64,000 nt of DNA from Botryllus schlosseri (lineage: Eukaryota), in contig CM119372.1 in assembly GCA_051294905.1 (NCBI GenBank), forward strand, positions 32,056,001-32,120,000, in the 5' to 3' direction. Position numbers and translations under genes: made by a program. The notes under the pieces are model-generated. The model worked only from the letters and a program-made list of their open reading frames with translations, was not told the DNA's origin and searched no databases. Position 1 is the first letter of the stretch; each line of letters opens with the position of its first letter. Positions 9,301-51,640 of this stretch are shown piece after piece.

Positions 9301-12300
9301 ATGCTTTCACACCCCAAAGCACTCAGTATGACAACTACCGCCATAGAATTATCATGATGGAATATACCAAGAAAAAGTTTAATCAAGTCTCTGCATTAAT
9401 TCGATTCAAGTACACATTTTATCAATATTTTTAAAATGTTTCTTCAGATTCTCGCGGGCCACACAGAACGCCGTTGCGGGCCGAATGCGGCCCGCGGACC
9501 ATAGTTTGGCCACCACTGACATAGTGGGTGTATGCCCAGTTTGATATTTAGAACTTAGGATTGATATACAATAGTCCAAGGTATATCTTACCAATACATT
9601 GACCATTGACGCGGATGAACCCATCTCTGCAAAGACATTGGCGGTTTCTGCAGAATGAATTAGCACCACACGTGCTACACGGATCTGCGAACAAAACTCA
9701 GCGTAAGAAGTATTGCATGGGTGATATCGATCTATCTATAAGATGTAACACATATGTTATTTATAGGCGATGATTCATGATCAGAATTAGTGGCGGCTGA
9801 GTAAATTTATGTTCACTCCACTGAGTTAATTTATGTTCACTCCGAATTGTGAATCAACAAAATGAACTGTCATTCTTGTCGAACAATTAAAGACTCAACG
9901 TTTGATACAGCTGCCGGACCATCACCGTGGCCAGTTTAATGATCTCATATGCGTTGGCTACCACCTCAACGGGCTACAATAGTACACTGCGTTACACTTC
10001 TAATAATTGCTCAAGTATAGTTTTGTTAACATATCATAATCACTTAAACATTAAATGGACAGGTTCAATTCAATATTATTGATGTCCAAATATCCATATT
10101 CATTTGTGATATCATATTCATGAGTCATGATGACTTACGCAGCGTTAATCATTAAAAAATATTTTTTTATTCGGGTGGAACGTCGGAAATTACAACATTC
10201 AAATATTTGTCGAAGTTTACCAAGGTCTAATAGGGGCATAAGTGTATAAGTCTTGAAATGACGGCAAGGTATCGTCAAACAGCTTTTTTTTTATAAGATG
10301 ACGTATAGTTGAATACATATAAAACACATCGGGCTTTACCGCAGCTTCTTTTTGAAAATCACAAATGTATATTTCAGTCTTCGTTCCAGTGAGAAACTTT
10401 TATTTATGACTTTCACGAGCCATTTCCGATCACATAACTCATTACGTTACCATATGTAGTAGCCTACGTAGAAGGTACAGGGCTAATAAGGATGGTGTGA
10501 ACGCGAGGTTCACGTTCGCGTTCTGTGTGTGAACCTCAGAAATTTAGAGGTTCGCGTTCACAAAGGAACTTTGGTAAATTCTGCACTATGAATCTTTTTC
10601 ATATATAACAATTTCACACGTCAATATAACATCTTTGGTTGAAATTTCTTGCATTTCAACTTCGGACAATTCTATGCATGGCACTGGCAGCATAAAAAAT
10701 CAACACTAACCGAGCATGCACCTTGCCAATCTCAAATATTTTACTTACTTTGTTACAAAGGCTTGCTCGTTTCCTCGTTTGTCAATATTTAGTGACTCTC
10801 TGATGTGAGCTTGACCCGCAATTACACATCATCGAGAACGAAATACACTACATGTAGGTAGTCAGCGAATGATGCTTATTCAACCAATCAATGGAATTGA
10901 TATAAAGAATACATCGTTTTCTAATATAAAAAATCTAACAGCCGTACGGAATCCATCTTGATTTAATTTCTTTATTGTATAATAAAACAATTGTATCATA
11001 ATAGAAACCCGTTTTACACTCTGCTCAACATCATTGTAGCAATAGTGAGAATCCGAATACATTGCCTGGTCTGGCCTAGACAGTTAATACATGAGCCTAT
11101 AATATGTTCCAAGTCCTCGTCAAAATTATTGGCAAAGTGACGGAAGATATTGATATTAGAGAAATATTAGAGCATTTCATTGCTGCAGTTCATACATTTG
11201 GTGACGATTAAAAAGTCAGCATGTACTTCAGCATTGTGGCATAATGTGGCCTGAGTCGTCGCTAGATATCATGTATATTAATAAATCACTTCACTGAAAT
11301 GCACTGAAATCGCGTTCGCGTTCACATATAACCTTTCAAAAAAATTCGCGTTCATGCGAACCTGAACCTTTCAGGGGTTCGCACCGTCCCCAGTAAATGC
11401 CCTCTCTATTTTCACAGTTGTGTAGATTTACAACACTACAAGAGAAGCCTTACCAACACATCGATTGTTTTTGCGGAAGAACCCGTCTCTGCAAACACAT
11501 TGGCGGTTCTTGCAGATTGAATTGGCTCCACACGATTTACATGGGTCTGTAAATATAATTCAGCGTGAGAAATAATGCATGGGCGACATCGAAGTATAAG
11601 TTGATTGATTGATTATTGGGAATATAATTCAGCCTATGAAATGAAGCACAGGCGAAATTGTTCTTCCAGACGGAAATATGGTCTTGATTAGCTAAGCGAA
11701 GATTGATGATAAAGCTATGTGACTGAATGCCTTCCCCATATGGATATCCCTCTCAACTCCAAGAACCTTCGACGTCGTGTCGACAGTCGACACATTGATA
11801 GTCATACTTTACGCACCGTCGTCCACGTTTTGCAAGAGCATGCAGAACCTCAATTTGAATATATCATTGATACCGTAATCATATCCAAATGTTTGGTAAT
11901 CTTGGGCGAATAACGGAAGCAAACAGTCTATCAAATCATTATCGTTTAATTGGAGATCTCCGCCTGGCCATGTCGCGGTCACATTGGAATTTCGACACCA
12001 TGAAAACCGCGTGCTACTCGCATAATACTTACTAAGGCATTCGTTCTTGAAAAGGAAGAATGGAAACTTGCAAATGCATTTCCCTAAAATGCATTTTCCA
12101 CCACTGCAGTTCCGGCACCGTTTACCTAAATAATGAAGTACTGATTATATTAGAGGTTCTTAACTCGAGGGTTGCTCCGACGACTTTCGAAGGGCGCGAA
12201 TCCTGGCGTGCTTTACAACTTAATCTCATCTCAAAACTCACACGCATATCACGCTATAATGTAAGTATTTATGTACAGAATCACGTCACTGAAGCTAGAA

Positions 12301-15300
12301 TTCGACACTAATCAAGTTCATTTGGTCGTAAAAACATGCACGTTTATCCGTGAAGGCTTGGTGACGAAGAGAAGGCAGGTTATAACCCCGGTTCCGGTTA
12401 CACAGACAGTGTGAAAAAGAAAGCAAATTAATCGAACGTGCCACTATCGGTGTCAAACAAATCGCCTATGTCGACATATGTCGATGTCAATCACTTAGTA
12501 TCAGGAACGATATTAGTCACCATGGACGTATCATCCCTGTATACAAGTATTCCTCATAAGGATGGCATGGAGGCTGTGGAGAGATCTCTTGCAGAAATTG
12601 GACATCCTTTAAAGAAAAGCATCATGGAACTTATCGGCTTCACGTTAACTCACAACACGTTCGAATTCAACGAAGAGATCTTTCTACAGCTTCAAGGAAC
12701 GGCAATGGGCACGAAATTTGCTCCGCAATACGCAAATCTTTTCATGCATCATTTTGAGGAGGATTTCATGGAGACACAAACATTGCGGCCAATATTTTAT
12801 ACGAGATACATCGACGACATTTTCATGATATGGACCCATGGAGAACAGTCACTGAAAAAGTTTCATGATTCAATAAACGACTTTCACCCTAACATTCGTC
12901 TGACCATGGAGAGCTCGATGACTGCAGTTTCATTCCTCGACACGCTTGTCAACATCGAAGAAGGTCGCATTTTCACGTCACTCTACCGTAAACCAACGGA
13001 CTCTGGTAAGATTTTAAACTACCACAGTTTCCATCCAGTACACTGTAAAAAAGGAATAGTCTACAGCAAAGCCCTTCGAATCCATAAAATTTGCTCGAAG
13101 AAAGAGGACAAAAATGAACATTTGGAAGTTTTGAAACACGAACTAATCAAATCTGGCTACGATCAACAGCTGATAAGGAATCAAATAAAAAGGGCCCTCA
13201 ATGTACCACGAGAGAAGCTCCTTGATTGCAGTCGAAATGAGGAAACACAAGATCGCAGAGTGCCGCTGGTCACTACATATTTCCCGGGAGCAGAAAAGAT
13301 CCGTAAAATTTTACGAAAACATCAGCGAATACTAATCAACGATCCGAAATGCAATGAAGTATTCCCGAGAAGACCTATTTTAGCCATCCGGCAACCACGC
13401 AACTTGCGTAACATTTTGGTAAATAGTAGGCTACCTCGGTCAAGACGAGAAAATGGCGTGGAAAATTGCGGACAGCCATCATGCAAGACGTGTGCTATTC
13501 TCAATCACAGCACCGTGATTACAAGAGGACCCGCCCGGCACAACATCAAAGGCCATTTTACTTGTAAATCAAGTAATGTCGTATATTTGATTCGCTGTCG
13601 AAAAGGATGTACGAATGCATGGTACGTAGGAGAAACCAGTCAACCTCTCCACAAGAGAGTAAATGGTCACCGACATGATATCTCGAAAGGTAACAAATCG
13701 AAGCCTGTCGGTGATCATTTTTCTTCCGCTGGGCACTCGGAGAGCGACATGACTATCAATGTATTGGTCGGGAACATGGAAGACGCTACTCTCCGCAAGG
13801 CTACAGAACAAAAATATATCGACAAATTTGATACTTTCCGACAAGGGCTGAATATAGATAGAGGATGTATGTCTCACTACACCATGAATGCTTGACTTAA
13901 CAAATTTTGTTCCTTTCAAATTAGCATATAAACACCTTATCCAATCCGATTTTAGGCACACAACTCACTATTTGCATTTCAAATCAAAACTTGATATTTG
14001 TGTCTATGACGTCATAGAGTACGCGACTTCAGTATCTAGAATTTCTCATTCCCTATGATGTCATAATATGCATATGTTCAAATTGAAAATATTTTTGCGT
14101 TGCTCTTTTTGCGTTACTTTCGCTTTGACACCTGATGAAGGAGCAGCGCTCCGAAAGCTCGTGTAACTAATAAAGTTATATTCATTCGCAAGTGGACGTT
14201 AAATAGAGTGTGAAAGCTACTAAGGTCTTACGTTTATATATATCGTCTGCTATCGGCGCAACCAAGTATTCAACTATGGATCACACCAGAAAATGCCGAA
14301 TTAAAGTGGAAAGAATCGCCAAGAAGATTGCTCGCAAAAACGCTGATATTTTTTTTCTATTGGAATGTAAAAAGCGCGACCTCATCCCGAAGGGTCTACG
14401 AATTCAAAACCCACTACGCAACACTTTCAAGACCACGTACTCAGAAAACTTGGCTCGGCGAATGTCGAAGAAATTGATGTCACATCTGACTGATATTCAC
14501 TATCGAAGCCGAGCAAAGTTCAGGTACGATATTGAAGGCACCATAAATCTAGTTGATGATCGCAAATTACAAGGAGATTTGCGTGAATTGGCTAAACAAA
14601 TTTCGACAAACGAAGTCAAAGGTATGATACTTCAAAAAGAGAAAAAAATCACGCAATTGGTAATGGAAAAGGAAAAATCCGAAATTTCACTGCCACCGGG
14701 CGCCACAGCTAAAAGTAATAAATCGGATATAGCCGTTGCTAACCTGTCTAGCAAAACCTTGACGCAGTCTCAAATCGATGTTCTCAGTCTTAATTTGAAA
14801 TTCTGCCCTACTCAAAAACTAGATCCTTACGTGTTAGCTGGAGACGCCGATGAATTCGACAGAAGAATGAGGAACAAGTACCATTTTTACGATGTCAATC
14901 CGGAAATTGAAGCTTCTCAGAATGGAAACGAGATAACTGAACAAATTATTAACAAGAAGCCCAAGAAAAACATAAGATGGAGGGCACCTCAGGGCGAAAA
15001 CAACAATTTGGACAAATATCTAGAAAGTTTCCACAACCAAATTAACGCTACATTCATTAGTAAGTCGAAACACCTCAACAGAAACTACAACGAAAATCTT
15101 ACGAAGGAGCAGAAAAAGGCAATCACAGAACTCAAACAGGAAGAGAGCATCGTAATCAAGCCTGCTGATAAAGGAGGAAAAGTAGTCGTCATGGACCTGA
15201 AAGACTATTTAGAAGAAGGCTACAGACAGTTGAACGACTCCGTGTCGTATCAGAAACTATATTGTGACCCAACGAAAGAACACACGAAACGATTAAAGAA

Positions 15301-18047
15301 AATTATAAAATCCTTGGATATGGAAGAAGACGAGAAATCAAAGATCAATATCCCGTCTGATCCCTCTCTTGGCCGCTTCTATCTTCTACCGAAGCTGCAC
15401 AAAGAGAATATTCCTGGACGCCCCATCGTGTCATGCAACAAAACTATAACGGAAGACATATCTGGATACGTGGAAAAACACCTTAAACCGTTGGTGAAAA
15501 GCACACCAAGTTTTTGTCGTGACACCACGGACTTTTTGAACAAACTCATGAATGTCAATCACTTAGTATCAGGAACGATATTAGTCACCATGGACGTATC
15601 ATCCCTGTATACAAGTATTCCTCATAAGGATGGCATGGAGGCTGTGGAGAGATCTCTTGCAGAAATTGGACATCCTTTAAAGAAAAGCATCATGGAACTT
15701 ATCGGCTTCACGTTAACTCACAACACGTTCGAATTCAACGAAGAGATCTTTCTACAGCTTCAAGGAACGGCAATGGGCACGAAATTTGCTCCGCAATACG
15801 CAAATCTTTTCATGCATCATTTTGAGGAGGATTTCATGGAGACACAAACATTGCGGCCAATATTTTATACGAGATACATCGACGACATTTTCATGATATG
15901 GACCCATGGAGAACAGTCACTGAAAAAGTTTCATGATTCAATAAACGACTTTCACCCTAACATTCGTCTGACCATGGAGAGCTCGATGACTGCAGTTTCA
16001 TTCCTCGACACGCTTGTCAACATCGAAGAAGGTCGCATTTTCACGTCACTCTACCGTAAACCAACGGACTCTGGTAAGATTTTAAACTACCACAGTTTCC
16101 ATCCAGTACACTGTAAAAAAGGAATAGTCTACAGCAAAGCCCTTCGAATCCATAAAATTTGCTCGAAGAAAGAGGACAAAAATGAACATTTGGAAGTTTT
16201 GAAACACGAACTAATCAAATCTGGCTACGATCAACAGCTGATAAGGAATCAAATAAAAAGGGCCCTCAATGTACCACGAGAGAAGCTCCTTGATTGCAGT
16301 CGAAATGAGGAAACACAAGATCGCAGAGTGCCGCTGGTCACTACATATTTCCCGGGAGCAGAAAAGATCCGTAAAATTTTACGAAAACATCAGCGAATAC
16401 TAATCAACGATCCGAAATGCAATGAAGTATTCCCGAGAAGACCTATTTTAGCCATCCGGCAACCACGCAACTTGCGTAACATTTTGGTAAATAGTAGGCT
16501 ACCTCGGTCAAGACGAGAAAATGGCGTGGAAAATTGCGGACAGCCATCATGCAAGACGTGTGCTATTCTCAATCACAGCACCGTGATTACAAGAGGACCC
16601 GCCCGGCACAACATCAAAGGCCATTTTACTTGTAAATCAAGTAATGTCGTATATTTGATTCGCTGTCGAAAAGGATGTACGAATGCATGGTACGTAGGAG
16701 AAACCAGTCAACCTCTCCACAAGAGAGTAAATGGTCACCGACATGATATCTCGAAAGGTAACAAATCGAAGCCTGTCGGTGATCATTTTTCTTCCGCTGG
16801 GCACTCGGAGAGCGACATGACTATCAATGTATTGGTCGGGAACATGGAAGACGCTACTCTCCGCAAGGCTACAGAACAAAAATATATCGACAAATTTGAT
16901 ACTTTCCGACAAGGGCTGAATATAGATAGAGGATGTATGTCTCACTACACCATGAATGCTTGACTTAACAAATTTTGTTCCTTTCAAATTAGCATATAAA
17001 CACCTTATCCAATCCGATTTTAGGCACACAACTCACTATTTGCATTTCAAATCAAAACTTGATATTTGTGTCTATGACGTCATAGAGTACGCGACTTCAG
17101 TATCTAGAATTTCTCATTCCCTATGATGTCATAATATGCATATGTTCAAATTGAAAATATTTTTGCGTTGCTCTTTTTGCGTTACTTTCGCTTTGACACC
17201 TGATGAAGGAGCAGCGCTCCGAAAGCTCGTGTAACTAATAAAGTTATATTCATTCGCAAGTGGACGTTAAATAGAGTGTGAAAGCTACTAAGGTCTTACG
17301 TTGACATATATAGGGTTACCATATTTCGGAATAGGAAAAGGAGGAAACTTATTTCAAATCATAAAAGTTAGTTTACCGAAATTGAAAACAGCTGACTTTG
17401 AAATATTTATTGGAAATCTTGTTGTGTTAACTAAAAAAATTATTTTTTCCGATCTGACTCCCGCGTATCCTGTCGTCTATGTTTTAGCCCAAAATATAAC
17501 GTCTTTCGTGGTCTTTTGGGGCATTTCAGGCTAAAAATGGAGGACAAATTTTCAACAAGAAGGACAATTGGGCGAAGGGAGGACAATTATTCTAATATGA
17601 GGACAAATCCTATACTATAGGAGGACGTATGATAGCCATAGACATATAGTCTTCCGCATGGTCTCATACTGCGCAAACCGAAGAAGTGGTAGTAACGGTA
17701 TATCAATCGTAGATACATGTTTCGCTCTACGTATAGTAATACTGCTTTTAATCCATGCAAATTACCAATCTATTGGCAATTTTTCAATCTTCAGCGACAC
17801 GGAACATATTACCTATAAGAAGAATGTGGTATGGAGGGTCAAGCTCGTTGTTTGCATTCAGGTATTCGGAGCTTCATTCAATCTCTGAGAGCCCGAAGCT
17901 TAGGTCACGATACATCAGCTTATACATTAGAGTCTGATCAGATCGTGTACGAATACATATTGTTAACATCTTACCGAAAATCGAGAAAAACGTCGCCTGG
18001 GACACCGACACCAATGCAACTAAAAGGAGTAATCTTGCCACCAACAT
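242..18047 (-). CDS. Spliced gene for a secreted tandem EGF/EB-like repeat protein (11 coding exons in window; 3' part continues beyond position 1)
   Basis: Exons read by hand, all with canonical AG/GT and phase 1-1: 17975-18047, 12033-12125, 11454-11546, 9592-9684, 6627-6731, 6185-6289, 5903-6007, 5118-5222, 3846-3950, 3564-3668, 242-346. The spliced frame is open: MLVARLLLLVALVSVSQATFFSIF-GKRCRNCSGGKCILGKCICKFPFFLFKNECL-NPCKSCGANSICKNRQCVCRDGFFRKNNRCV-DPCSTCGANSFCRNRQCLCRDGFIRVNGQCI-VDGCRRNSDCRQNEVCNNGDCVCGRGYVRSSGRCV-... Not visible in the ORF track. Confidence 0.88.
1392..3282. mobile_element. hAT-type MITE with subterminal GGATT(A/T/C)G repeats
   Basis: TIR CAGAGATGAGC...GCTCATCTCTG; perfect 8-bp TSD TTAATTAG (1384-1391, 3283-3290). 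Confidence 0.85.
1578..3002 (+). mobile_element. Internally deleted Chapaev3-like (CMC superfamily) DNA transposon
   Basis: Starts CAC, TTA on both sides (1575-1577, 3003-3005); decayed transposase pieces (KIVLFHNGNTYSPLSVGH; MSIKVHVLFSHLDIFPDHL; GERF-like); colinear with 20732-20933 plus 23839-25046. Confidence 0.7.
3564..3668 (-). CDS. EGF/EB-like exon 9 (LDGCRSDSDCGENEDCDDRECVCEKGYSRSNGRCV)
   Basis: 105 nt, AG/GTAAGT, phase 1-1. Confidence 0.9.
3846..3950 (-). CDS. EGF/EB-like exon 8 (LNGCRRDSDCGQNEDCENGDCVCERGYIRSDGRCV)
   Basis: 105 nt, AG/GTAAGT, phase 1-1. Confidence 0.9.
4625..4769 (-). mobile_element. tRNA-derived SINE fragment (second family)
   Basis: Minus strand GGCCGGCAAGATAGCGTAGTG...GGTCGTGGACTCAATCCC resembles pol III A and B boxes. 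Confidence 0.5.
4817..5092 (+). mobile_element. tRNA-derived SINE, about 275 bp, (ACA)n tail
   Basis: A-box-like TATCGTAGTGG, B box GGTTCGAGTCC, CAA tail, 12-bp TSD ATCATCACA(C/T)GC; further copies at 7285-7546 (-), 44760-45036 (+) and about 40975-41106. Confidence 0.85.
5118..5222 (-). CDS. EGF/EB-like exon 7 (LDGCRGDRDCGENEECEDGECVCERGYSRSNGRCV)
   Basis: 105 nt, TTGCAG/GTAAGT, phase 1-1. Confidence 0.9.
5903..6007 (-). CDS. EGF/EB-like exon 6 (LDGCRRNSDCGQNEVCKNGDCVCERGYSRSNGRCV)
   Basis: 105 nt, AG/GTAAGT, phase 1-1. Confidence 0.9.
6185..6289 (-). CDS. EGF/EB-like exon 5 (LDGCRRNSDCGQNEDCVNGDCVCETGYSRSNGRCV)
   Basis: 105 nt, AG/GTAAGT, phase 1-1. Confidence 0.9.
6627..6731 (-). CDS. 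EGF/EB-like exon 4 (VDGCRRNSDCRQNEVCNNGDCVCGRGYVRSSGRCV)
   Basis: 105 nt, TTTTAG acceptor, GTAAGT donor, phase 1-1. Confidence 0.9.
7285..7546 (-). mobile_element. tRNA-derived SINE (same family as 4817-5092)
   Basis: Reverse-complement similarity over the tRNA-like head, body and tail. Confidence 0.8.
8373..9518. mobile_element. Non-autonomous hAT (Charlie-like) element
   Basis: Subterminal GCGGGCCG motifs; perfect 8-bp TSD ACATAGTG (8365-8372, 9519-9526). Confidence 0.8.
9592..9684 (-). CDS. EGF-like exon 3 (DPCSTCGANSFCRNRQCLCRDGFIRVNGQCI)
   Basis: 93 nt, TCGCAG acceptor, GTAAGA donor; paralogous to 11454-11546 including flanking intron sequence. Confidence 0.9.
10487..11392 (-). mobile_element. 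MITE family with TAGGGATGGTGTGAAC termini and GTTCGC repeats (copy without the hammerhead insert)
   Basis: Inverted copy of 21326-22441; another copy starts at 43138. Confidence 0.75.
11454..11546 (-). CDS. EGF-like exon 2 (NPCKSCGANSICKNRQCVCRDGFFRKNNRCV)
   Basis: 93 nt, TTACAG acceptor, GTAAGG donor, phase 1-1. Confidence 0.9.
12033..12125 (-). CDS. EGF-like exon 1 (GKRCRNCSGGKCILGKCICKFPFFLFKNECL)
   Basis: 93 nt, TTTAG acceptor, GTAAGT donor, phase 1-1, six Cys. Confidence 0.85.
12484..13895 (+). pseudogene. 5'-truncated upstream copy of the Penelope ORF (C-terminal RT + GIY-YIG)
   Basis: Translation identical to the last ~470 aa of the full ORF; the first 16 codons of the tracked ORF lie in host flank. 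Confidence 0.92.
14127..14165 (+). ncRNA. Minimal type I hammerhead ribozyme (Penelope terminal repeat copy 1)
   Basis: ACAC-CTGATGA-A-GGAGC(AGC)GCTCC-GAAA-GC-TC-GTGT: full catalytic core, stem I ACAC/GTGT, 5-bp stem II, palindromic AGCT replacing stem III; AATAAA follows at 14169-14174. Confidence 0.9.
14276..16963 (+). CDS. Penelope-like RT-GIY-YIG protein, 895 aa from the first ATG, intact
   Basis: PLE motifs IKPADKG, LPKLHK, GRPIVS, MDVSSLYT, GTAMG, RYIDD, FLD, YRKPT; Cys-rich linker CGQPSCKTC; endonuclease VVY...YVGET...R...H...E...GLN. The ORF-track start at 14210 is a GTG; the first ATG is 14276. Confidence 0.96.
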   Translation: MDHTRKCRIKVERIAKKIARKNADIFFLLECKKRDLIPKGLRIQNPLRNTFKTTYSENLARRMSKKLMSHLTDIHYRSRAKFRYDIEGTINLVDDRKLQGDLRELAKQISTNEVKGMILQKEKKITQLVMEKEKSEISLPPGATAKSNKSDIAVANLSSKTLTQSQIDVLSLNLKFCPTQKLDPYVLAGDADEFDRRMRNKYHFYDVNPEIEASQNGNEITEQIINKKPKKNIRWRAPQGENNNLDKYLESFHNQINATFISKSKHLNRNYNENLTKEQKKAITELKQEESIVIKPADKGGKVVVMDLKDYLEEGYRQLNDSVSYQKLYCDPTKEHTKRLKKIIKSLDMEEDEKSKINIPSDPSLGRFYLLPKLHKENIPGRPIVSCNKTITEDISGYVEKHLKPLVKSTPSFCRDTTDFLNKLMNVNHLVSGTILVTMDVSSLYTSIPHKDGMEAVERSLAEIGHPLKKSIMELIGFTLTHNTFEFNEEIFLQLQGTAMGTKFAPQYANLFMHHFEEDFMETQTLRPIFYTRYIDDIFMIWTHGEQSLKKFHDSINDFHPNIRLTMESSMTAVSFLDTLVNIEEGRIFTSLYRKPTDSGKILNYHSFHPVHCKKGIVYSKALRIHKICSKKEDKNEHLEVLKHELIKSGYDQQLIRNQIKRALNVPREKLLDCSRNEETQDRRVPLVTTYFPGAEKIRKILRKHQRILINDPKCNEVFPRRPILAIRQPRNLRNILVNSRLPRSRRENGVENCGQPSCKTCAILNHSTVITRGPARHNIKGHFTCKSSNVVYLIRCRKGCTNAWYVGETSQPLHKRVNGHRHDISKGNKSKPVGDHFSSAGHSESDMTINVLVGNMEDATLRKATEQKYIDKFDTFRQGLNIDRGCMSHYTMNA
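17195..17233 (+). ncRNA. Minimal type I hammerhead ribozyme (Penelope terminal repeat copy 2)
   Basis: Identical to 14127-14165, 3068 nt downstream. Confidence 0.9.
17311..17640. mobile_element. hAT-type MITE (TAGGGTTACCATA termini, GAGGACA repeats)
   Basis: 8-bp TSD GACATATA (17303-17310, 17641-17648); related sequence at about 4265-4400 and 43520-43620. Confidence 0.8.
17975..18047 (-). CDS. First coding exon: signal peptide MLVARLLLLVALVSVSQA-TFFSIF
   Basis: ATG at 18047-18045 (context AAAATG), basic residue, hydrophobic core and SQA cleavage-like site; phase-1 donor GTAAGA at 17974-17969; acceptor TTTAG ending at 18079 upstream. Confidence 0.8.
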
Positions 18048-20388: not shown

Positions 20389-21325
20389 GTGTAAATGGTT
20401 CTTATCGATCAAGTGCATCCATTGAATCCATTCCAGAGCTAGGCATGAATAGGTAACGAAATAGGCTTTGTCTCCGTTCAGCCGAAACCGCAATAAACAA
20501 TTTCTACTTGTGATATTTTGGCGAATTCAAATTTTTTAAGCCTGCTCAGGTGCAGGGATTCGGCGTCACACAACGAATACTCACCAAAAAGTTTCTGCTG
20601 CCAGCAGACTGATGTCATAGAGATGGTCAAAATACACTGGTACGGTCATCTTTAGGAAGTATGTAGGCTAGTATTCGTGATCGAAGTTGCTTCATATAGT
20701 TATATGTCACGACTCTCACCTAAGAATATAACACCGGTCAATAAAATGAAAACAAATTTTTAGGTAGAACATATTAGAGCCGTTTCTGGAGTTTTTTAGG
20801 TTGCTGATTACGAATATCATATTAGTTTTGTCAGATTGGCTTATTGTCAGAAGATATTTATACCCCTAAAAAGCCTAAAATTACTGGACTTACCCTTAAA
20901 TATTTCACTTGATAGGAAGAAAACGGTAGTTTTCAAAGTAGTGGGCGTACTTACTCGTATAGACGTAAAATTCGTACGCTAAATCTCATCTAAATCACAA
21001 AGTAAGTAGCGATTACCAACGCCAGTCGAAACTACATAATGCGGCTGTAGAAAATGGAAGTACTCAAGTAAGCATTTTAGTTGTAACTTGCGGATGCTTT
21101 GTAGTCAATCGTAAAAAGGCTGATGTTGAAATTGCAAGATAAATATTCGCTACGAACACAAATTGATTAAAGGCCACCGCAAATGGGTGGCATTTTCGAA
21201 GGTATGTTTAGTTACTCTGCTAAAGTAGCTATTTCTCACGATTGTTATGTTAATGACTCGCATGAAAGTGATCCAAATCTAACCCAATGCAATTACTACT
21301 TTTTAAAATATCATGGTGTAAACAC

Positions 21326-22441
21326 TAGGGATGGTGTGAACTTCTGAAAGATTCAGGTTCGTGTGAGCGCGAACCTTTTTGAAAGGTTCTGTGTGAACGC
21401 GAACGCGAACCTTACGACGTCACGTGACGTCATATTGCTAATTCCAACCCTACATCTCAGTGAAGTGTGATATATATTGTTGATGAGCATAGTCATTCGA
21501 ACTCTCGCAATATTGCTGACGATATCCCCTGACGAGGGTCAGCCGAAAAGCTTCGGGAATAAATATGAATATTTTATTCAAATGTGTTATGATGTTCTGA
21601 TATATTAATGTAGAACACGATACCTAATGACGACTCGGGTCACATTATGCCACAATGCTGAAGTACATACTGACTTTTTAAACGTCACCAAATGTATCAA
21701 CTGGAGCAAGCAAATGATATATTAATCCCATAAAATCAATATCTTCCGTCGCTTTGCCAATAATTTCGACGATAACTTGCAAGGGAATATATGCTTACGC
21801 CTTAGCGGTCTAGGCCAGACCGGGCAATGTATTCGTAGTATTAGTAGTGTTGCTATGTTGATATTGAGCAGAGTGTAAAACGGGTTTTATCCCATTAACA
21901 AGTTATACAGCAGTAGCCAACACCCCCCAATCGCAGGGATTTGGTTTTTATAAATACAATAAACATATGAAATCGAGATGGACCCGTACGCTTGATAAAT
22001 TTTTTACATCAGACAACAATATCAATTTCAGTGATTGTTCGAATAAGTATCATTCGTTGACTACCTACATGTAGCGTATTTCGCACTTGATGTTGTGGGA
22101 TTACGGGTCATGCTCACAGCAGAAAGTCACTAAATATTAACAAACAGAAAGCTGGATATTTAGAGCAAACTTTTGTAACAAAGAAGGTAAAAATTTTGAG
22201 GTTGTCAAAGTGCATGCTCGTTTGGTGTAGATTTTTTATGCTGCCAGCGCCATGCATAGAGTGGTCCGTAGTTGAAACGCAATAAATTTCGACCAAAAAT
22301 GTTATAATGACGTGTAAATTGTAATATGTGAAAGGTTCACAGTACAGAACCTGCCAATGTTCGTTTGTGAACGTGAATCGCTAAATTTCCGAGGTTTACA
22401 CACAGAACGCGAACGTGAGCCTCACGTTCACACTATCCCTA
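21326..22441 (+). mobile_element. hAT-type MITE (TAGGGATGGTGTGAAC) carrying a 122-bp hammerhead-containing insert
   Basis: TIRs, and TSD GTAAACAC / GTAAATAC; repeated at 26738-27853 and 32151-33266. Confidence 0.85.
21525..21558 (+). ncRNA. Minimal hammerhead ribozyme motif, second family (copy 1)
   Basis: TCCC-CTGACGA-G-GG(TCAG)CC-GAAA-AGCT-TC-GGGA followed by ATAAA; core intact, stem II only 2 bp, palindrome AAGCTT in place of stem III. Confidence 0.75.
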
Positions 22442-23102
22442 GTAAATACTGTAAAAAGTAAATAGTTTCACCTAAAAACTATATAATATAAGCGGAAGTA
22501 ACCGAAACAAAGCCGTTTGTGTGGTCCGTGGACATATGATCAATGAAAAGGCGACATAATAGCATGAAACGCTTGGGCATGCGACATTTGTGCATTCGTC
22601 AAGTGAACAAGTGTGGGTTAAATTGCAGGTTAGGGTTGGGCACTGTCATTTCGTAAATGTATTTTACTCAAAAACTACAAAATATCAGGTAATTGATTTT
22701 CCAGAAAGGTTCCGAAATCGTGACATCGCAGCTGTACATTTCGACATTTCGTCTATGCGGAACAGCACTACGCATACTTACCAATTTCCGAAATTGTTCA
22801 GATCTCCATAATTAAAACATTTCAGTTTGGCGTGTACTGAGAAAAATCAAACAAATATTTCCGAGCATGACACGTGCTCGACGATAAGCATCGTCGTTTC
22901 GGATTCATTTTATCGACCCATTATTTTCTAATAAACGGGTTAAATATGCATGTTTACCCGCGAGTATACCGACATGTAACATGATAATTCTACTTGAAAC
23001 TTTGGTCAATACCTGATCTCATGTCATGTGTATGATCCCATAATTTCGCCGCAATGTCCATGTAATTCGGGTTTCGCATCGATTGCCGACATTCACATAT
23101 TA

Positions 23103-48899: not shown

Positions 48900-51640
48900 T
48901 ATCATTCGGACTACGAAAAGTCCATGCTGCGTTATAGTCGGGAGTGGGTCCATACCATAGGTGTATGAATACCCCTGCACCTTCCACGTTTTGTTACGTT
49001 AACAACACAACATACATCTTACCTAAGCACAACTGATGGCGATTTACTGATGCAGCCCGCACATAATACTTATCCCACCTCCTCGCCACAGAACCTCTCA
49101 CTGCGGTTAGATAGATAGATAATTATATTTGTGTGTAGCGATTTACGCTTTATACACAGTATGACTAGGATGATGTAAGCATTGGGCACATTCATAATAT
49201 GCGCCCGGTTTTCCTGACAAATTCGTAGATTTCGGCATCTAGCAATTGTTCGGATAAAATGTCCTTAATAGTGAACGGAATATGGATGCATGCGGCCTCT
49301 TCTATTAGTTTACGTCTGTAGTGCCCGTATTGGGGGCAGTGTAGCAAGAAATGGGACAACGTTTCTTGGCAGCCACAGCTGTCGCATAGTCCCGTAGTGT
49401 GTAGGTTGAGACGATGAAGGTGTCCATTTAACCGGCAATGACCGGTTCTTAGGCGGAAAAGGATTGTGTCAACTTCGCGTCTTTTTGACGGAGGATATAC
49501 GGACGAGGCTTCGAAGAGTGTCTTGTATTGCTGCGCAGAGTCCGAGGTGGCATAAATTTCTCTCCATTCTTCCATGTATGTTGTGGACAATGCGGACTTT
49601 GCTTCGGCCGGGGTCACCGGTATCACCGAGTCGATTGTTGTCCTCTCAGTCGCATGCCTAGCATGCTTGTCGGCACATTCGTTACCGGCTATTCCAACGT
49701 GGCTAGGAATCCACATGAATTTTATGGTAAGTCCCTGGCTAGCTAGCGTGTTGAGCATGTGGTTAATTTTCAGTGGTAGAAGGTCTTTATAGAGACTTGA
49801 CGAGGAGATGCAACGCAATGCTGATAAGGAATCGCTCATGATCAAGGATTTGTCTGGCCGAAACAAAGCTATCCAATAGAGGGCTCGAAGGATAGCATAT
49901 AACTCCGCTGACATAACTGACGATATGTCTGTTATGCGGAAATATTGAATTGCGTTTAAATCTGCTACATAGAAAGCCGATGCAGTCCCCGAACGGCTCT
50001 TGAAGCCGTCCGTAAAAATTTTGGTGTATTCAAGGTACGAGGTTGCTAAAGTTTCATTAACCCTAGATACAATCACCGCGGGGAGGGTCTGATCCCGGTT
50101 GACCTCGGTCATCTGCACATCTACAGCGATGGGCGATGCGAGCCATGGTGGTGTTGCGAGTACATTTGCGGTACCAATGTGAAAACTGTCGAAGAGTGGA
50201 TTGCATGTAAAGGAGTTGAATGAAAGGAAACTTGAGCGACTTGGGAAGACCTCCTGCCACGACCAGGTAATCGATTTCCGTCCCGGATGGGGATGCGGTG
50301 ACGAGAGAATGCTGCATTTGTGCGACTCGCATACCTTCTTCCGTCTCAGGGATAAGGGAAGTTCATTGCAGCAATGTTGCAGAGCAATTATAGGGGTGCT
50401 GCAGAGAGCGCCACAGCTGATTCGCAGGGCAGAATGTTGCAATACCTCCAACCTTTTCATTTGTGCGTTGGTAGCCCCGAGTGCATAAGTTTCGATGCCG
50501 TATTCAATAATACTCCGTATCTGGCAACGATAGATTTTCAGCAAGGTCTGCTTGTTTGCTCCCCAGGTTTTACACGCTATCAATCTGAGGAGACTCAGTC
50601 GGTTGGCGCACTTTTTGAGAATTTGGTCAATGTGGGTTTTATACGAGAGTTTGGAATCAAACATTATACCAAGGTACTTGACAGTCTTCTTGACAGGAAT
50701 TTTAGTGTCTTTTATTTTCTGGTTTATGTTCGGAATGATCCTCCTATGTGTAAACCAAACCACTGTGGACTTGGAAGGAGACACCCGGAAACCCCACTTA
50801 TCACACCAGCGCGTTATCTTCTCCAGCGACAGCGCTAGTCGTGATACGGCGTCAGAGATTTGGTACGAGGCTTCGTGAATAGTGCAGTCAGCATCAGCAA
50901 AAATCTCAACTTCGGATAGTAAATGATTTGGGAAATCATTCATCATGATTGAAAACAGCACAGGAGATATCACACTACCTTGTGGTATCCCATTCTGGGG
51001 TGTCCTGATCGAGGAAAATGCGCTGCCAATTCGTACTTGGAATGACCGATCCGTTAGAAAAGATTTGATCCATCTGTACATGCTTCCCGAGATTCCAATG
51101 GTACGAAGTTTGTGAAGAAGGCCTTCTTTCCATACCATGTCATAGGCTTTATTCATGTCTAAAAATACTGCTACTACCGAATACTGGTTCGCTAGTGCTT
51201 TGTCGATTGAATCGTGGAGCGACAGTAAATTGTCTCGGGTAGACCGGCGTGGTCGGAAACCGTTCTGATGTTCGTATAGAGGATTTGGTGTTTTGCGAGG
51301 AACCATTGAAGCCGAGTCACCACCATCGATTCCATTATTTTGCATAGACTATTCGTGAGTGCTATGGGGCGATATGACGATGGGGTGTCTTGTGGCTTAC
51401 CGCCCTTCAATACGGGGATTATTGTCGCATGTCGCCAGGATTTTGGGACCAACCCGCATTGCCATGATTGGTTTAGTATTTGCAGGATTATTCTAAAGTT
51501 GTTTTGGAGGAAGTCGGTTTATCATTTCGTAGCAGAGGTCATCGGGACCAGGCGAGGACGACTTTCTGCTATTCATGGCTCGCATCAGTTCTTCCTTCGT
51601 GAATGGGGCATCCATAGGAGCCCCAGATAATTCGTTAGAG
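48900..51640 (-). mobile_element. 5'-truncated I-group (I/Nimb/Ingi-like) non-LTR retrotransposon, frameshifted
   Basis: Three overlapping frames give SPGPD, WRHATIIPVLK...SYRPIALT, QNGFR, FLDMNKAYD, GIPQGSVISP, YLG; RNase H IFTDG, AELYAI, SDSLSAL, WIPSHVGIAGNECAD; C-terminal CxxC...H...C. Boundaries approximate. Confidence 0.9.
49192..51300 (-). pseudogene. LINE ORF2 remnant (RT + RNase H + CCHC)
   Basis: 717-aa tracked ORF whose N-terminus is out of frame; catalytic motif reads FADAD instead of (Y/F)ADD. Confidence 0.85.

Follow-up and report, generated by a model that had tools for sequence, protein, structure and literature searches.

Background

Minimal hammerhead ribozymes in Penelope-like elements (PLEs) were described by Cervera and de la Pena in 2014 (PMC4209133), with a palindrome, in pairs about 3 kb apart and in many solo copies. 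These motifs cleave poorly even as dimers. The authors proposed that the tandem arrangement comes about by cleavage, ligation of the RNA to a circle and reverse transcription over more than one unit; a review (PMC6765202) repeats the circle proposal. As a published scheme, dimer cleavage followed by a circle and more-than-unit copying is still unproven, and the model of an earlier note on the DNA studied here (double cleavage that releases a unit-length RNA with the entire ORF and, if this is circularised, rolling reverse transcription) is in print in the same 2014 paper. A promoter resides in the upstream pseudo-LTR (PMC2377424), and its rebuilding in new copies has been treated differently by different authors: PMC2377424 sees no obvious mechanism, PMC4209133 invokes the circle, and in the purified PLE system of Frangieh et al. 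(2024, PMC11167929) the ribozyme is dispensable in vitro, hammerhead mutants inserting normally. The last paper also reports that no RNA-seq reads end at the cut, that two internal starts define the tail, and that both strands are cut and extended. In retrozymes, the monomers that type I hammerheads release are joined into circles by RtcB (PMC7229834).

The element analysed here lies in a 64-kb window of Botryllus schlosseri DNA, the whole stretch that was analysed; unless another locus is named, coordinates are those of the window, and signed positions count from the predicted ribozyme cut. Its hammerheads share with those of PMC4209133 a 4-bp stem I, a bulged base before stem II, G10.1-C11.1, the palindromic positions 15.2-16.2, the occurrence in pairs about 3 kb apart in two pseudo-LTRs and the many solo copies. 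Stem II has 7-8 bp in that study and 5 bp here; in the present work the positions of the solo copies were determined as well, and there is a definite limit to their 5' ends. With Poseidon PAc of Anolis carolinensis (PMC11167929) the element has in common two internal starts, cutting and extension of both strands, AT-rich targets and, apparently, uncut RNA as a template. It differs from PAc in clade, in having a linker finger, in starts that lie in the 5' UTR before the ATG and not inside the ORF, and in 0-6 letters of junction homology (raw counts) in several insertions. The likeness to Neptune and Nematis (Craig et al. 2021, PMC8557442) extends to the C-terminal GIY-YIG with CCHH, the CX2-5CxxC linker and DKG, and also to partial tandems, an inverted 5'-truncated arm, a 30-40-nt tail and a hammerhead in the pseudo-LTR. 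Non-LTR retrozymes (PMC7229834; Li et al. 2026, 10.64898/2026.07.22.740005) likewise consist of units in tandem, each with its own type I hammerhead, and copying of their circles by a PLE enzyme has been proposed; they are non-coding units of 170-400 nt with canonical hammerheads and demonstrated circles, whereas the present unit is 3 kb long and coding, with a minimal hammerhead and a putative circle.

Element type, motif and circle hypothesis are known already. The lineage adds a young intact element with base-precise predictions (an RNA start near 14116, a cut at 14160/14161, and copying starts at 14234 and about 14273) and natural products of multi-pass copying, and the unproven circle model becomes directly testable. 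If the circle is real, a eukaryotic retrotransposon that codes for protein would use as its template a circular RNA made by ribozymes, which would link PLEs, solo hammerhead copies and retrozymes mechanistically. Our literature search found no published 5'-end census or multi-unit two-arm PLE insertion, and older subscription papers and supplements may describe multimers.

Results and discussion

The window insertion and its hammerhead motifs

The segments 12484-14234 and 15552-17302 are the same letter for letter over 1751 nt, at a period of 3068 nt. The insert as a whole (12484-17302) measures 4819 nt, or 1.571 units, and consists of a 5'-truncated repeat followed by one full unit. A 7-nt duplication brackets all 4819 nt, so the tandem arose in a single event. 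The two hammerhead copies of the window are not independent of each other and count as a single evolutionary event. The features are as follows.

12473-12479, no strand: left target-site duplication, 7 nt, identical to the 7 letters at 17303-17309
12480-12483, no strand: 5'-junction filler of 4 nt whose letters complement the flank, as in a fold-back; not part of the element; differs from the matching place in unit 2
12484-14234, + strand: upstream repeat, 5'-truncated (3' half of the ORF plus pseudo-LTR), 100% identical to 15552-17302
14128-14164, + strand: minimal type I hammerhead 1, descriptor match, predicted cut after C14160
14161-17228, + strand: predicted cut-to-cut unit RNA of 3068 nt, by arithmetic from the sequence
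14276-16963, + strand: intact 895-aa ORF with reverse transcriptase (RT), CX4CxxC linker finger and C-terminal GIY-YIG-type endonuclease
17196-17232, + strand: minimal type I hammerhead 2, descriptor match, predicted cut after C17228
17302, + strand: 3' end of the insertion, at the +74 reverse-transcription start, 74 nt past the second cut
17303-17309, no strand: right target-site duplication, 7 nt, letters matching 12473-12479

At the 5' junction a 14-nt palindrome surrounds the target duplication, and the 4-nt filler at 12480-12483 is probably of fold-back origin. Diverged inverted repeats (81-86%) flank the insertion at 10484-11394 and 21324-22444 and are likely copies of a non-autonomous element of the host.

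Stem I of hammerhead 1 is formed by 4 bp between 14128-31 and 14161-64. CUGAUGA begins at 14132 and GAAA at 14153, and the 5-bp stem II, closed by a 3-nt loop, is preceded by one bulged A. In both copies GC-UC with a palindromic AGCU takes the place of stem III next to a UH cut site, and the CUGANGA/GAAA core, stems I and II, the UH site and the palindrome together make up a minimal type I hammerhead. The earlier note had read CUGAUGA...GAAA-GC-UC with both stems and the AGCU palindrome in each repeat and had placed the cuts after C14160 and C17228, 3068 nt apart, some 115 nt before the ATG and just before AATAAA. All of these coordinates proved correct and the geometry holds, with the ATG at 14276 and AATAAA at 14169 and 17237.

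A structural descriptor comprising stems, core and palindrome matches exactly two sites in the window and has no match in 200/200 dinucleotide shuffles; genome-wide, a 35-nt hammerhead pattern has 167 exact matches compared with 0 for the reversed control. An Rfam scan of the window returned no hammerhead family at E<=1, and the call is therefore based on the descriptor and the published minimal-hammerhead consensus. Even in subfamilies as little as 76% identical, the core and both stems, I and II, are fixed while loop II and N7 vary; among the subfamilies compared over that range, stems I and II contain no compensatory pairs, only invariance. We are close to certain that the locus is a Penelope-like element with the known kind of minimal hammerhead.

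Open reading frame and class of the element

Pfam places RVT_1 at aa 382-567 of the 895-aa protein (E 1.8e-12) and finds no RNase H domain in the ORF. Further motifs are DKG at aa 295, YIDD at aa 531-539, the linker finger at aa 754 (window 16535) and LIR..YVG at aa 791-810. GIY-YIG is not scored by Pfam on this protein and the endonuclease is assigned by motif positions; homologues of the protein carry PF01541, and 947 homologues have a like architecture. A single ORF with RT and GIY-YIG-type endonuclease, a partial tandem with pseudo-LTRs, inverted 5'-truncated arms and a 30-40-nt tail characterise the element as an EN+ PLE. It has the CX2-5CxxC linker between RT and endonuclease, CCHH and DKG of Neptune and Nematis, a combination that excludes Penelope/Poseidon, Hydra and Naiad, so that, judged by the motif definitions of PMC8557442, it classifies as a Neptune- or Nematis-type PLE. 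A unit of 3068 nt with an 895-aa ORF is not the small non-coding unit of a retrozyme.

Many full-length homologues (P0001, P0002, P0010, P0022, P0025 and others) come from contigs that measure about 2.9-3.3 kb, the length of one unit. Contigs of this length result from collapsed repeats and are no evidence for circles. Elsewhere in the window, 49192-51345 on the minus strand holds a 717-aa ORF that, read by eye, encodes a non-LTR-type RT with an RNase H-like C-terminus.

Copy census and the starts of copying

The census patterns, which span the cut and the 19 nt after it, match the genome at 201 places, 192 with C at the cut and 9 without it. From these, 192 matches were used and reduced to 164 events by merging amplified copies that share flanks; after removal of 5 internal deletions and 12 internal passes of tandems, 147 events were analysed. 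Their 3' ends fall near +74 in 73 events and near +113 in 61, with 13 elsewhere. The segment between the two starts is the following.

14235-14273, + strand: "tail" between two reverse-transcription starts (about +74 and about +113), defined by the 3' ends of 73 and 61 of the 147 events

Two-arm inverted insertions have one end of each kind. A target duplication of 10-14 letters is present in 9 of 13 two-arm insertions, with end-finding having failed in the 4 others, which are diverged; of 46 short copies with a single arm, 21 have one of at least 7 letters. That +74 and +113 are fixed starts of copying is shown by the ends of the copies together with their target duplications. The 3' end of the window insertion, at a start used by 73/147 events, is therefore not a stop of rolling synthesis. 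The earlier note had explained the 1.57-unit insert, ending 74 nt past the cut, by rolling reverse transcription; more-than-unit copying is real in the lineage (see below), and it is the reading of the +74 end that has to be given up. In the two-arm insertions L032-L047, the target duplication and the RNA at the start sites share 0-6 letters (raw counts).

A limit of the template upstream of the cut

If linear RNA cut at the first ribozyme were a main template, 5' ends should gather at the cut. Only 6/147 lie within 2 nt of it, compared with 4.4 expected from neighbouring positions (P=0.27), and we rejected a pile-up there; the lack of an excess indicates that such RNA is not a main template. 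Three independent events start at the cut without the preceding C, in a census whose patterns include and omit it.

The 5' ends gather instead from -26 to -55 and then cease: among the 147 events, 24 end at -42 to -46, 3 at -47 to -55 and 2 at -56 to -85. This cliff was first seen on contigs C1-C7, where 28/60 stop at -26 to -55 compared with 1/32 in the next 30 nt. Contigs C8 and later, which served as a replication set, gave 35/67 and 1/32 (pooled P=4e-12). The limit falls at the same template position in +74 and +113 arms, with like maxima, and hence belongs to the template. A limit on cDNA length would let +74 arms extend 39 nt beyond +113 arms, which they do not (medians -41 and -32), and it was rejected. 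That the cliff stems from deletions after insertion or from failed alignments is countered by the removal of the 5 internal deletions and by the target duplications at 21/46 short copies. A spliced leader was also rejected, as the upstream flanks all differ.

14116, + strand: putative transcription start, an A at -45, marked by the 5'-end pile-up and an initiator-like context

A14116 stands in a YYANWYY context, which we take to be initiator-like, and the sister family has the same context. The uncut linear RNA would begin near this nucleotide, 12 nt before the ribozyme. The census points to a template uncut at the ribozyme and ending some 45 nt upstream of the cut as the source of about half of the insertions. 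Starts so near the RNA 5' end, followed by run-off, would yield many solo hammerhead copies. An uncut template agrees with the use of unprocessed RNA reported in PMC11167929.

More-than-unit copying

Arms that come to the -45 zone again mostly continue through it, in 11/12 internal passes (P=0.006), which are not mutually independent, and in 8/9 arms (P=0.036). The first passes with which they are compared are a poor and inflated baseline, because on the short RNAs of truncated copies synthesis has no way to go on.

The clearest case belongs to the sister family, which has a unit of 3059 nt and 897-aa ORFs. A head-to-head insertion at G000:C2:26986078-27006541 (L056, L071, L072) lies, as assembled, in one target duplication. 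One arm, of 13,767 nt or 4.5 units, ends at +74; the other, of 5,138 nt or 1.68 units, ends in the tail. In all passes 10/3059 columns carry fixed variants that are absent from other loci; the 5 internal differences are all singletons, and there is no indel scar. One unit of the longer arm is interrupted by an unrelated 1558-nt insert with terminal inverted repeats. Three other tandems have private variants common to their own repeats, at 6/1672, 2/925 and 9/2974 columns. We tried and rejected a single linear master recognisable by shared differences between repeat 1 and repeat 2: none are shared among four family-B loci. The 4.5 and 1.7 near-identical units need a circle or seamless template jumps, and the same DNA would result if the enzyme jumped without a seam, guided by homology, between the redundant ends of a linear RNA.

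No longer master array was found with 40 of the 41 candidates scored. Among the same 40, the window locus is the only full-length copy above 99% identity. Locus L035 is 99.9-100% identical to the window copy and has a tailed arm that reaches 1870 nt upstream of the cut, whereas the longest stretch that precedes a tail at the window locus is 1677 nt; a lost or unassembled master locus could be its source. For some long copies a plain linear template is explanation enough: L060, a full-length copy, begins at -55 and ends at the tail, as a linear template predicts, and L040, which has a target duplication, exceeds one unit by about 15 nt.

Long and short arms tend to occur with their like. At 45 junctions, 18 pairs are short-short, 21 long-long and 6 mixed (P ~1e-6 with mixed pairs split evenly, some of the long pairs coming from length-biased searches); three rows were read by hand on account of reference wrap-around, one of them assigned mixed. 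Equal synthesis time could couple the two arms instead. Among 58 long arms, with few informative sites, we saw no clear chimera breaking at -45 or at the cut.

RNA reads and predicted folding

Four raw RNA runs, three of them single-cell, were mapped to 12200-15551 at 3-6% of each run. The 192 reads obtained come mostly from diverged copies within host transcripts and leave the 5' half of the ORF almost uncovered. At this very low depth they contain no joints, no pile-up of starts or ends and no end at 14160/14161. Sense-strand depth in the single-cell runs, weak as it is, is highest 60-280 nt ahead of the cut and comes mainly from diverged copies. The junction of a circle has the same sequence as tandem DNA, so that reads of this kind cannot reveal a circle.

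14161-14181, + strand: predicted hairpin with AAUAAA (14169-14174) in its loop, including the 3' strand of hammerhead stem I, pair probabilities 0.68-1.0

The equivalent hairpin of the sister family (L058) has 7 bp, two-sided changes and pair probabilities of 0.72-0.98. In these models the hairpin competes with hammerhead stem I, whose predicted probability is at most 0.03 because its 3' strand is occupied, and the loop may hide the upstream poly(A) signal. Stem II is predicted to be lost in the downstream context, where upstream sequence is present. Two-molecule folding puts the double hammerhead at -21.5 kcal/mol compared with -33.8 for the best fold, making the active fold 12 kcal/mol higher. 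The predicted energies thus disfavour spontaneous ribozyme activity without help, which matches the weak, dimer-dependent or protein-assisted cleavage described in PMC4209133 and PMC11167929. A conserved 13-bp helix blocking stem II in the downstream repeat was considered and rejected, its upstream strand being absent from the sister family.

A proposed pair of templates and the alternatives

We propose that two forms of the same RNA serve as templates. Transcription from the pseudo-LTR promoter would begin some 45 nt before the hammerhead cut. The RT-endonuclease makes a staggered cut in AT-rich DNA and primes both strands at the RNA sites +74 and +113, as copy ends and target duplications show. 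On uncut linear RNA, synthesis would run off at the 5' end after 120-160 nt, leaving short hammerhead-bearing copies, about half of the insertions; the pattern of these copies is plain in the genome, and run-off is its probable cause. In a fraction of the RNA the two weak hammerheads would pair up as a dimer and cleave, probably assisted by protein, and ligation would close the unit to a circle of 3068 nt. There the enzyme would meet no end and could produce long arms, partial tandems such as the window copy, and multimers, and copying of the circle would regenerate the pseudo-LTR promoter. Copying through several passes did occur, in this model by way of cleavage, ligation, a circle and rolling. 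The passage of later rounds through the -45 zone, the likeness of the arms within insertions, the array of 4.5 and 1.68 units, the reach of L035, the conserved hammerhead core and the RtcB circularisation of retrozymes speak for the mechanism; the 5' ends, which show no excess at the cut, the low-depth reads, which have no ends there, the disfavoured ribozyme fold and the normal insertion of hammerhead mutants in the purified system speak against it. Our confidence in the whole mechanism, ribozyme-made circle included, is evenly poised between acceptance and doubt. Extended to autonomous PLEs in general, the idea would be that capped uncut RNA gives short copies while a unit circle is copied by a dimeric RT rolling from both strands; this we advance tentatively, with slightly less than even confidence. 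If true, the two-template reading answers how the pseudo-LTR is regenerated, and the genome preserves the footprints of both templates, including the insertion of 4.5 and 1.7 units.

The circle could be dispensed with if strands were transferred, in the manner of retroviruses, on a linear RNA. Such an RNA would span from -45 to the poly(A) site after the second AAUAAA, or to +74, and would for that reason be terminally redundant, the hairpin hiding the first AAUAAA. Synthesis starting at +74 or +113 would reach -45 and either be integrated as a short copy or transfer by homology to the 3' repeat, repeatedly, while the hammerhead would have another job such as decapping, translation start or RNA turnover. 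The cliff of 5' ends at -45 does resemble a strong stop, the AAUAAA hairpin is conserved, homologous transfer is expected to leave seamless junctions, and the weak sense-strand depth peak before the cut, mostly of diverged copies, can be counted on the same side. So can the dispensability of the hammerhead in vitro (PMC11167929) and the finding that self-cleavage can drive cap-independent translation (PMC13725137). This reading is nevertheless unlikely in our judgement: the stop at -45 is rare in later passes (1/12), the 4.5-unit arm would require four successive transfers, long and short arms are seldom mixed in one insertion (6/45), the ORF is without an RNase H domain, and the 58 long arms, at their few informative sites, include no -45 chimera.

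Linear read-through RNA from tandem masters might also be the sole template, with multimers arising later by unequal crossing-over, gene conversion or adjacent insertion and partly by assembly error. This is the scenario of PMC11167929 and, as regards tandem insertion, the older view of PMC2377424; L060 and L040 are compatible with a linear template, and unequal exchange can expand perfect in-register repeats. We find it improbable, given that whole tandems and the 20-kb two-arm locus lie within single target duplications, that 0/5 internal differences are common to units while private variants are common to inverted arms, that the 5' ends of upstream repeats, which vary and lie in mid-ORF, cannot have been copied from an RNA with its start at -45, and that the 40 scored of 41 candidates include no longer master array. 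It would take still more to regard the hammerheads as catalytically vestigial, with the motif kept as a promoter, 5'-UTR or protein-binding sequence and the -45 cliff caused by a structural block. The disfavoured active fold, the mere invariance of stems I and II in place of compensatory changes, and the lack of RNA ends at the cut among 192 low-depth reads would all accord with such a loss of activity. Yet the catalytic core is invariant while free positions (loop II, N7) vary, related PLE hammerheads cleave in vitro (PMC4209133 and PMC11167929), and the 5' ends accumulate beyond the structure and not at the side where the enzyme first meets it, which makes this explanation very improbable.

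Other copies of hammerhead motifs

Short copies of the element have in places been multiplied together with their surroundings. At G000:C4:28362148-28389056 (L073-L076), a two-arm insertion of about 190 nt that includes the hammerhead recurs 10 times at uneven distances, apparently as a passenger of a tandem repeat of the host; arrays like those of retrozymes could originate in this way. One short PLE copy occurs ten times with shared flanks (L123, L129, L130, L133, L140, L150, L188, L195, L200, L201), and another, which begins exactly at the cut, occurs five times, also with shared flanks (L112, L115, L117-L119). Both sets are amplified passively inside other mobile elements.

The window also contains a second hammerhead-like motif at 21529, 26941 and 32354, with a CUGACGA core, GAAA, an AGCU palindrome and a weak stem II. 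These motifs sit in a host segment of 5.4 kb that is present in three repeats, the first beginning at about 20933; there is no long ORF nearby, and they are probably remnants of another PLE family.
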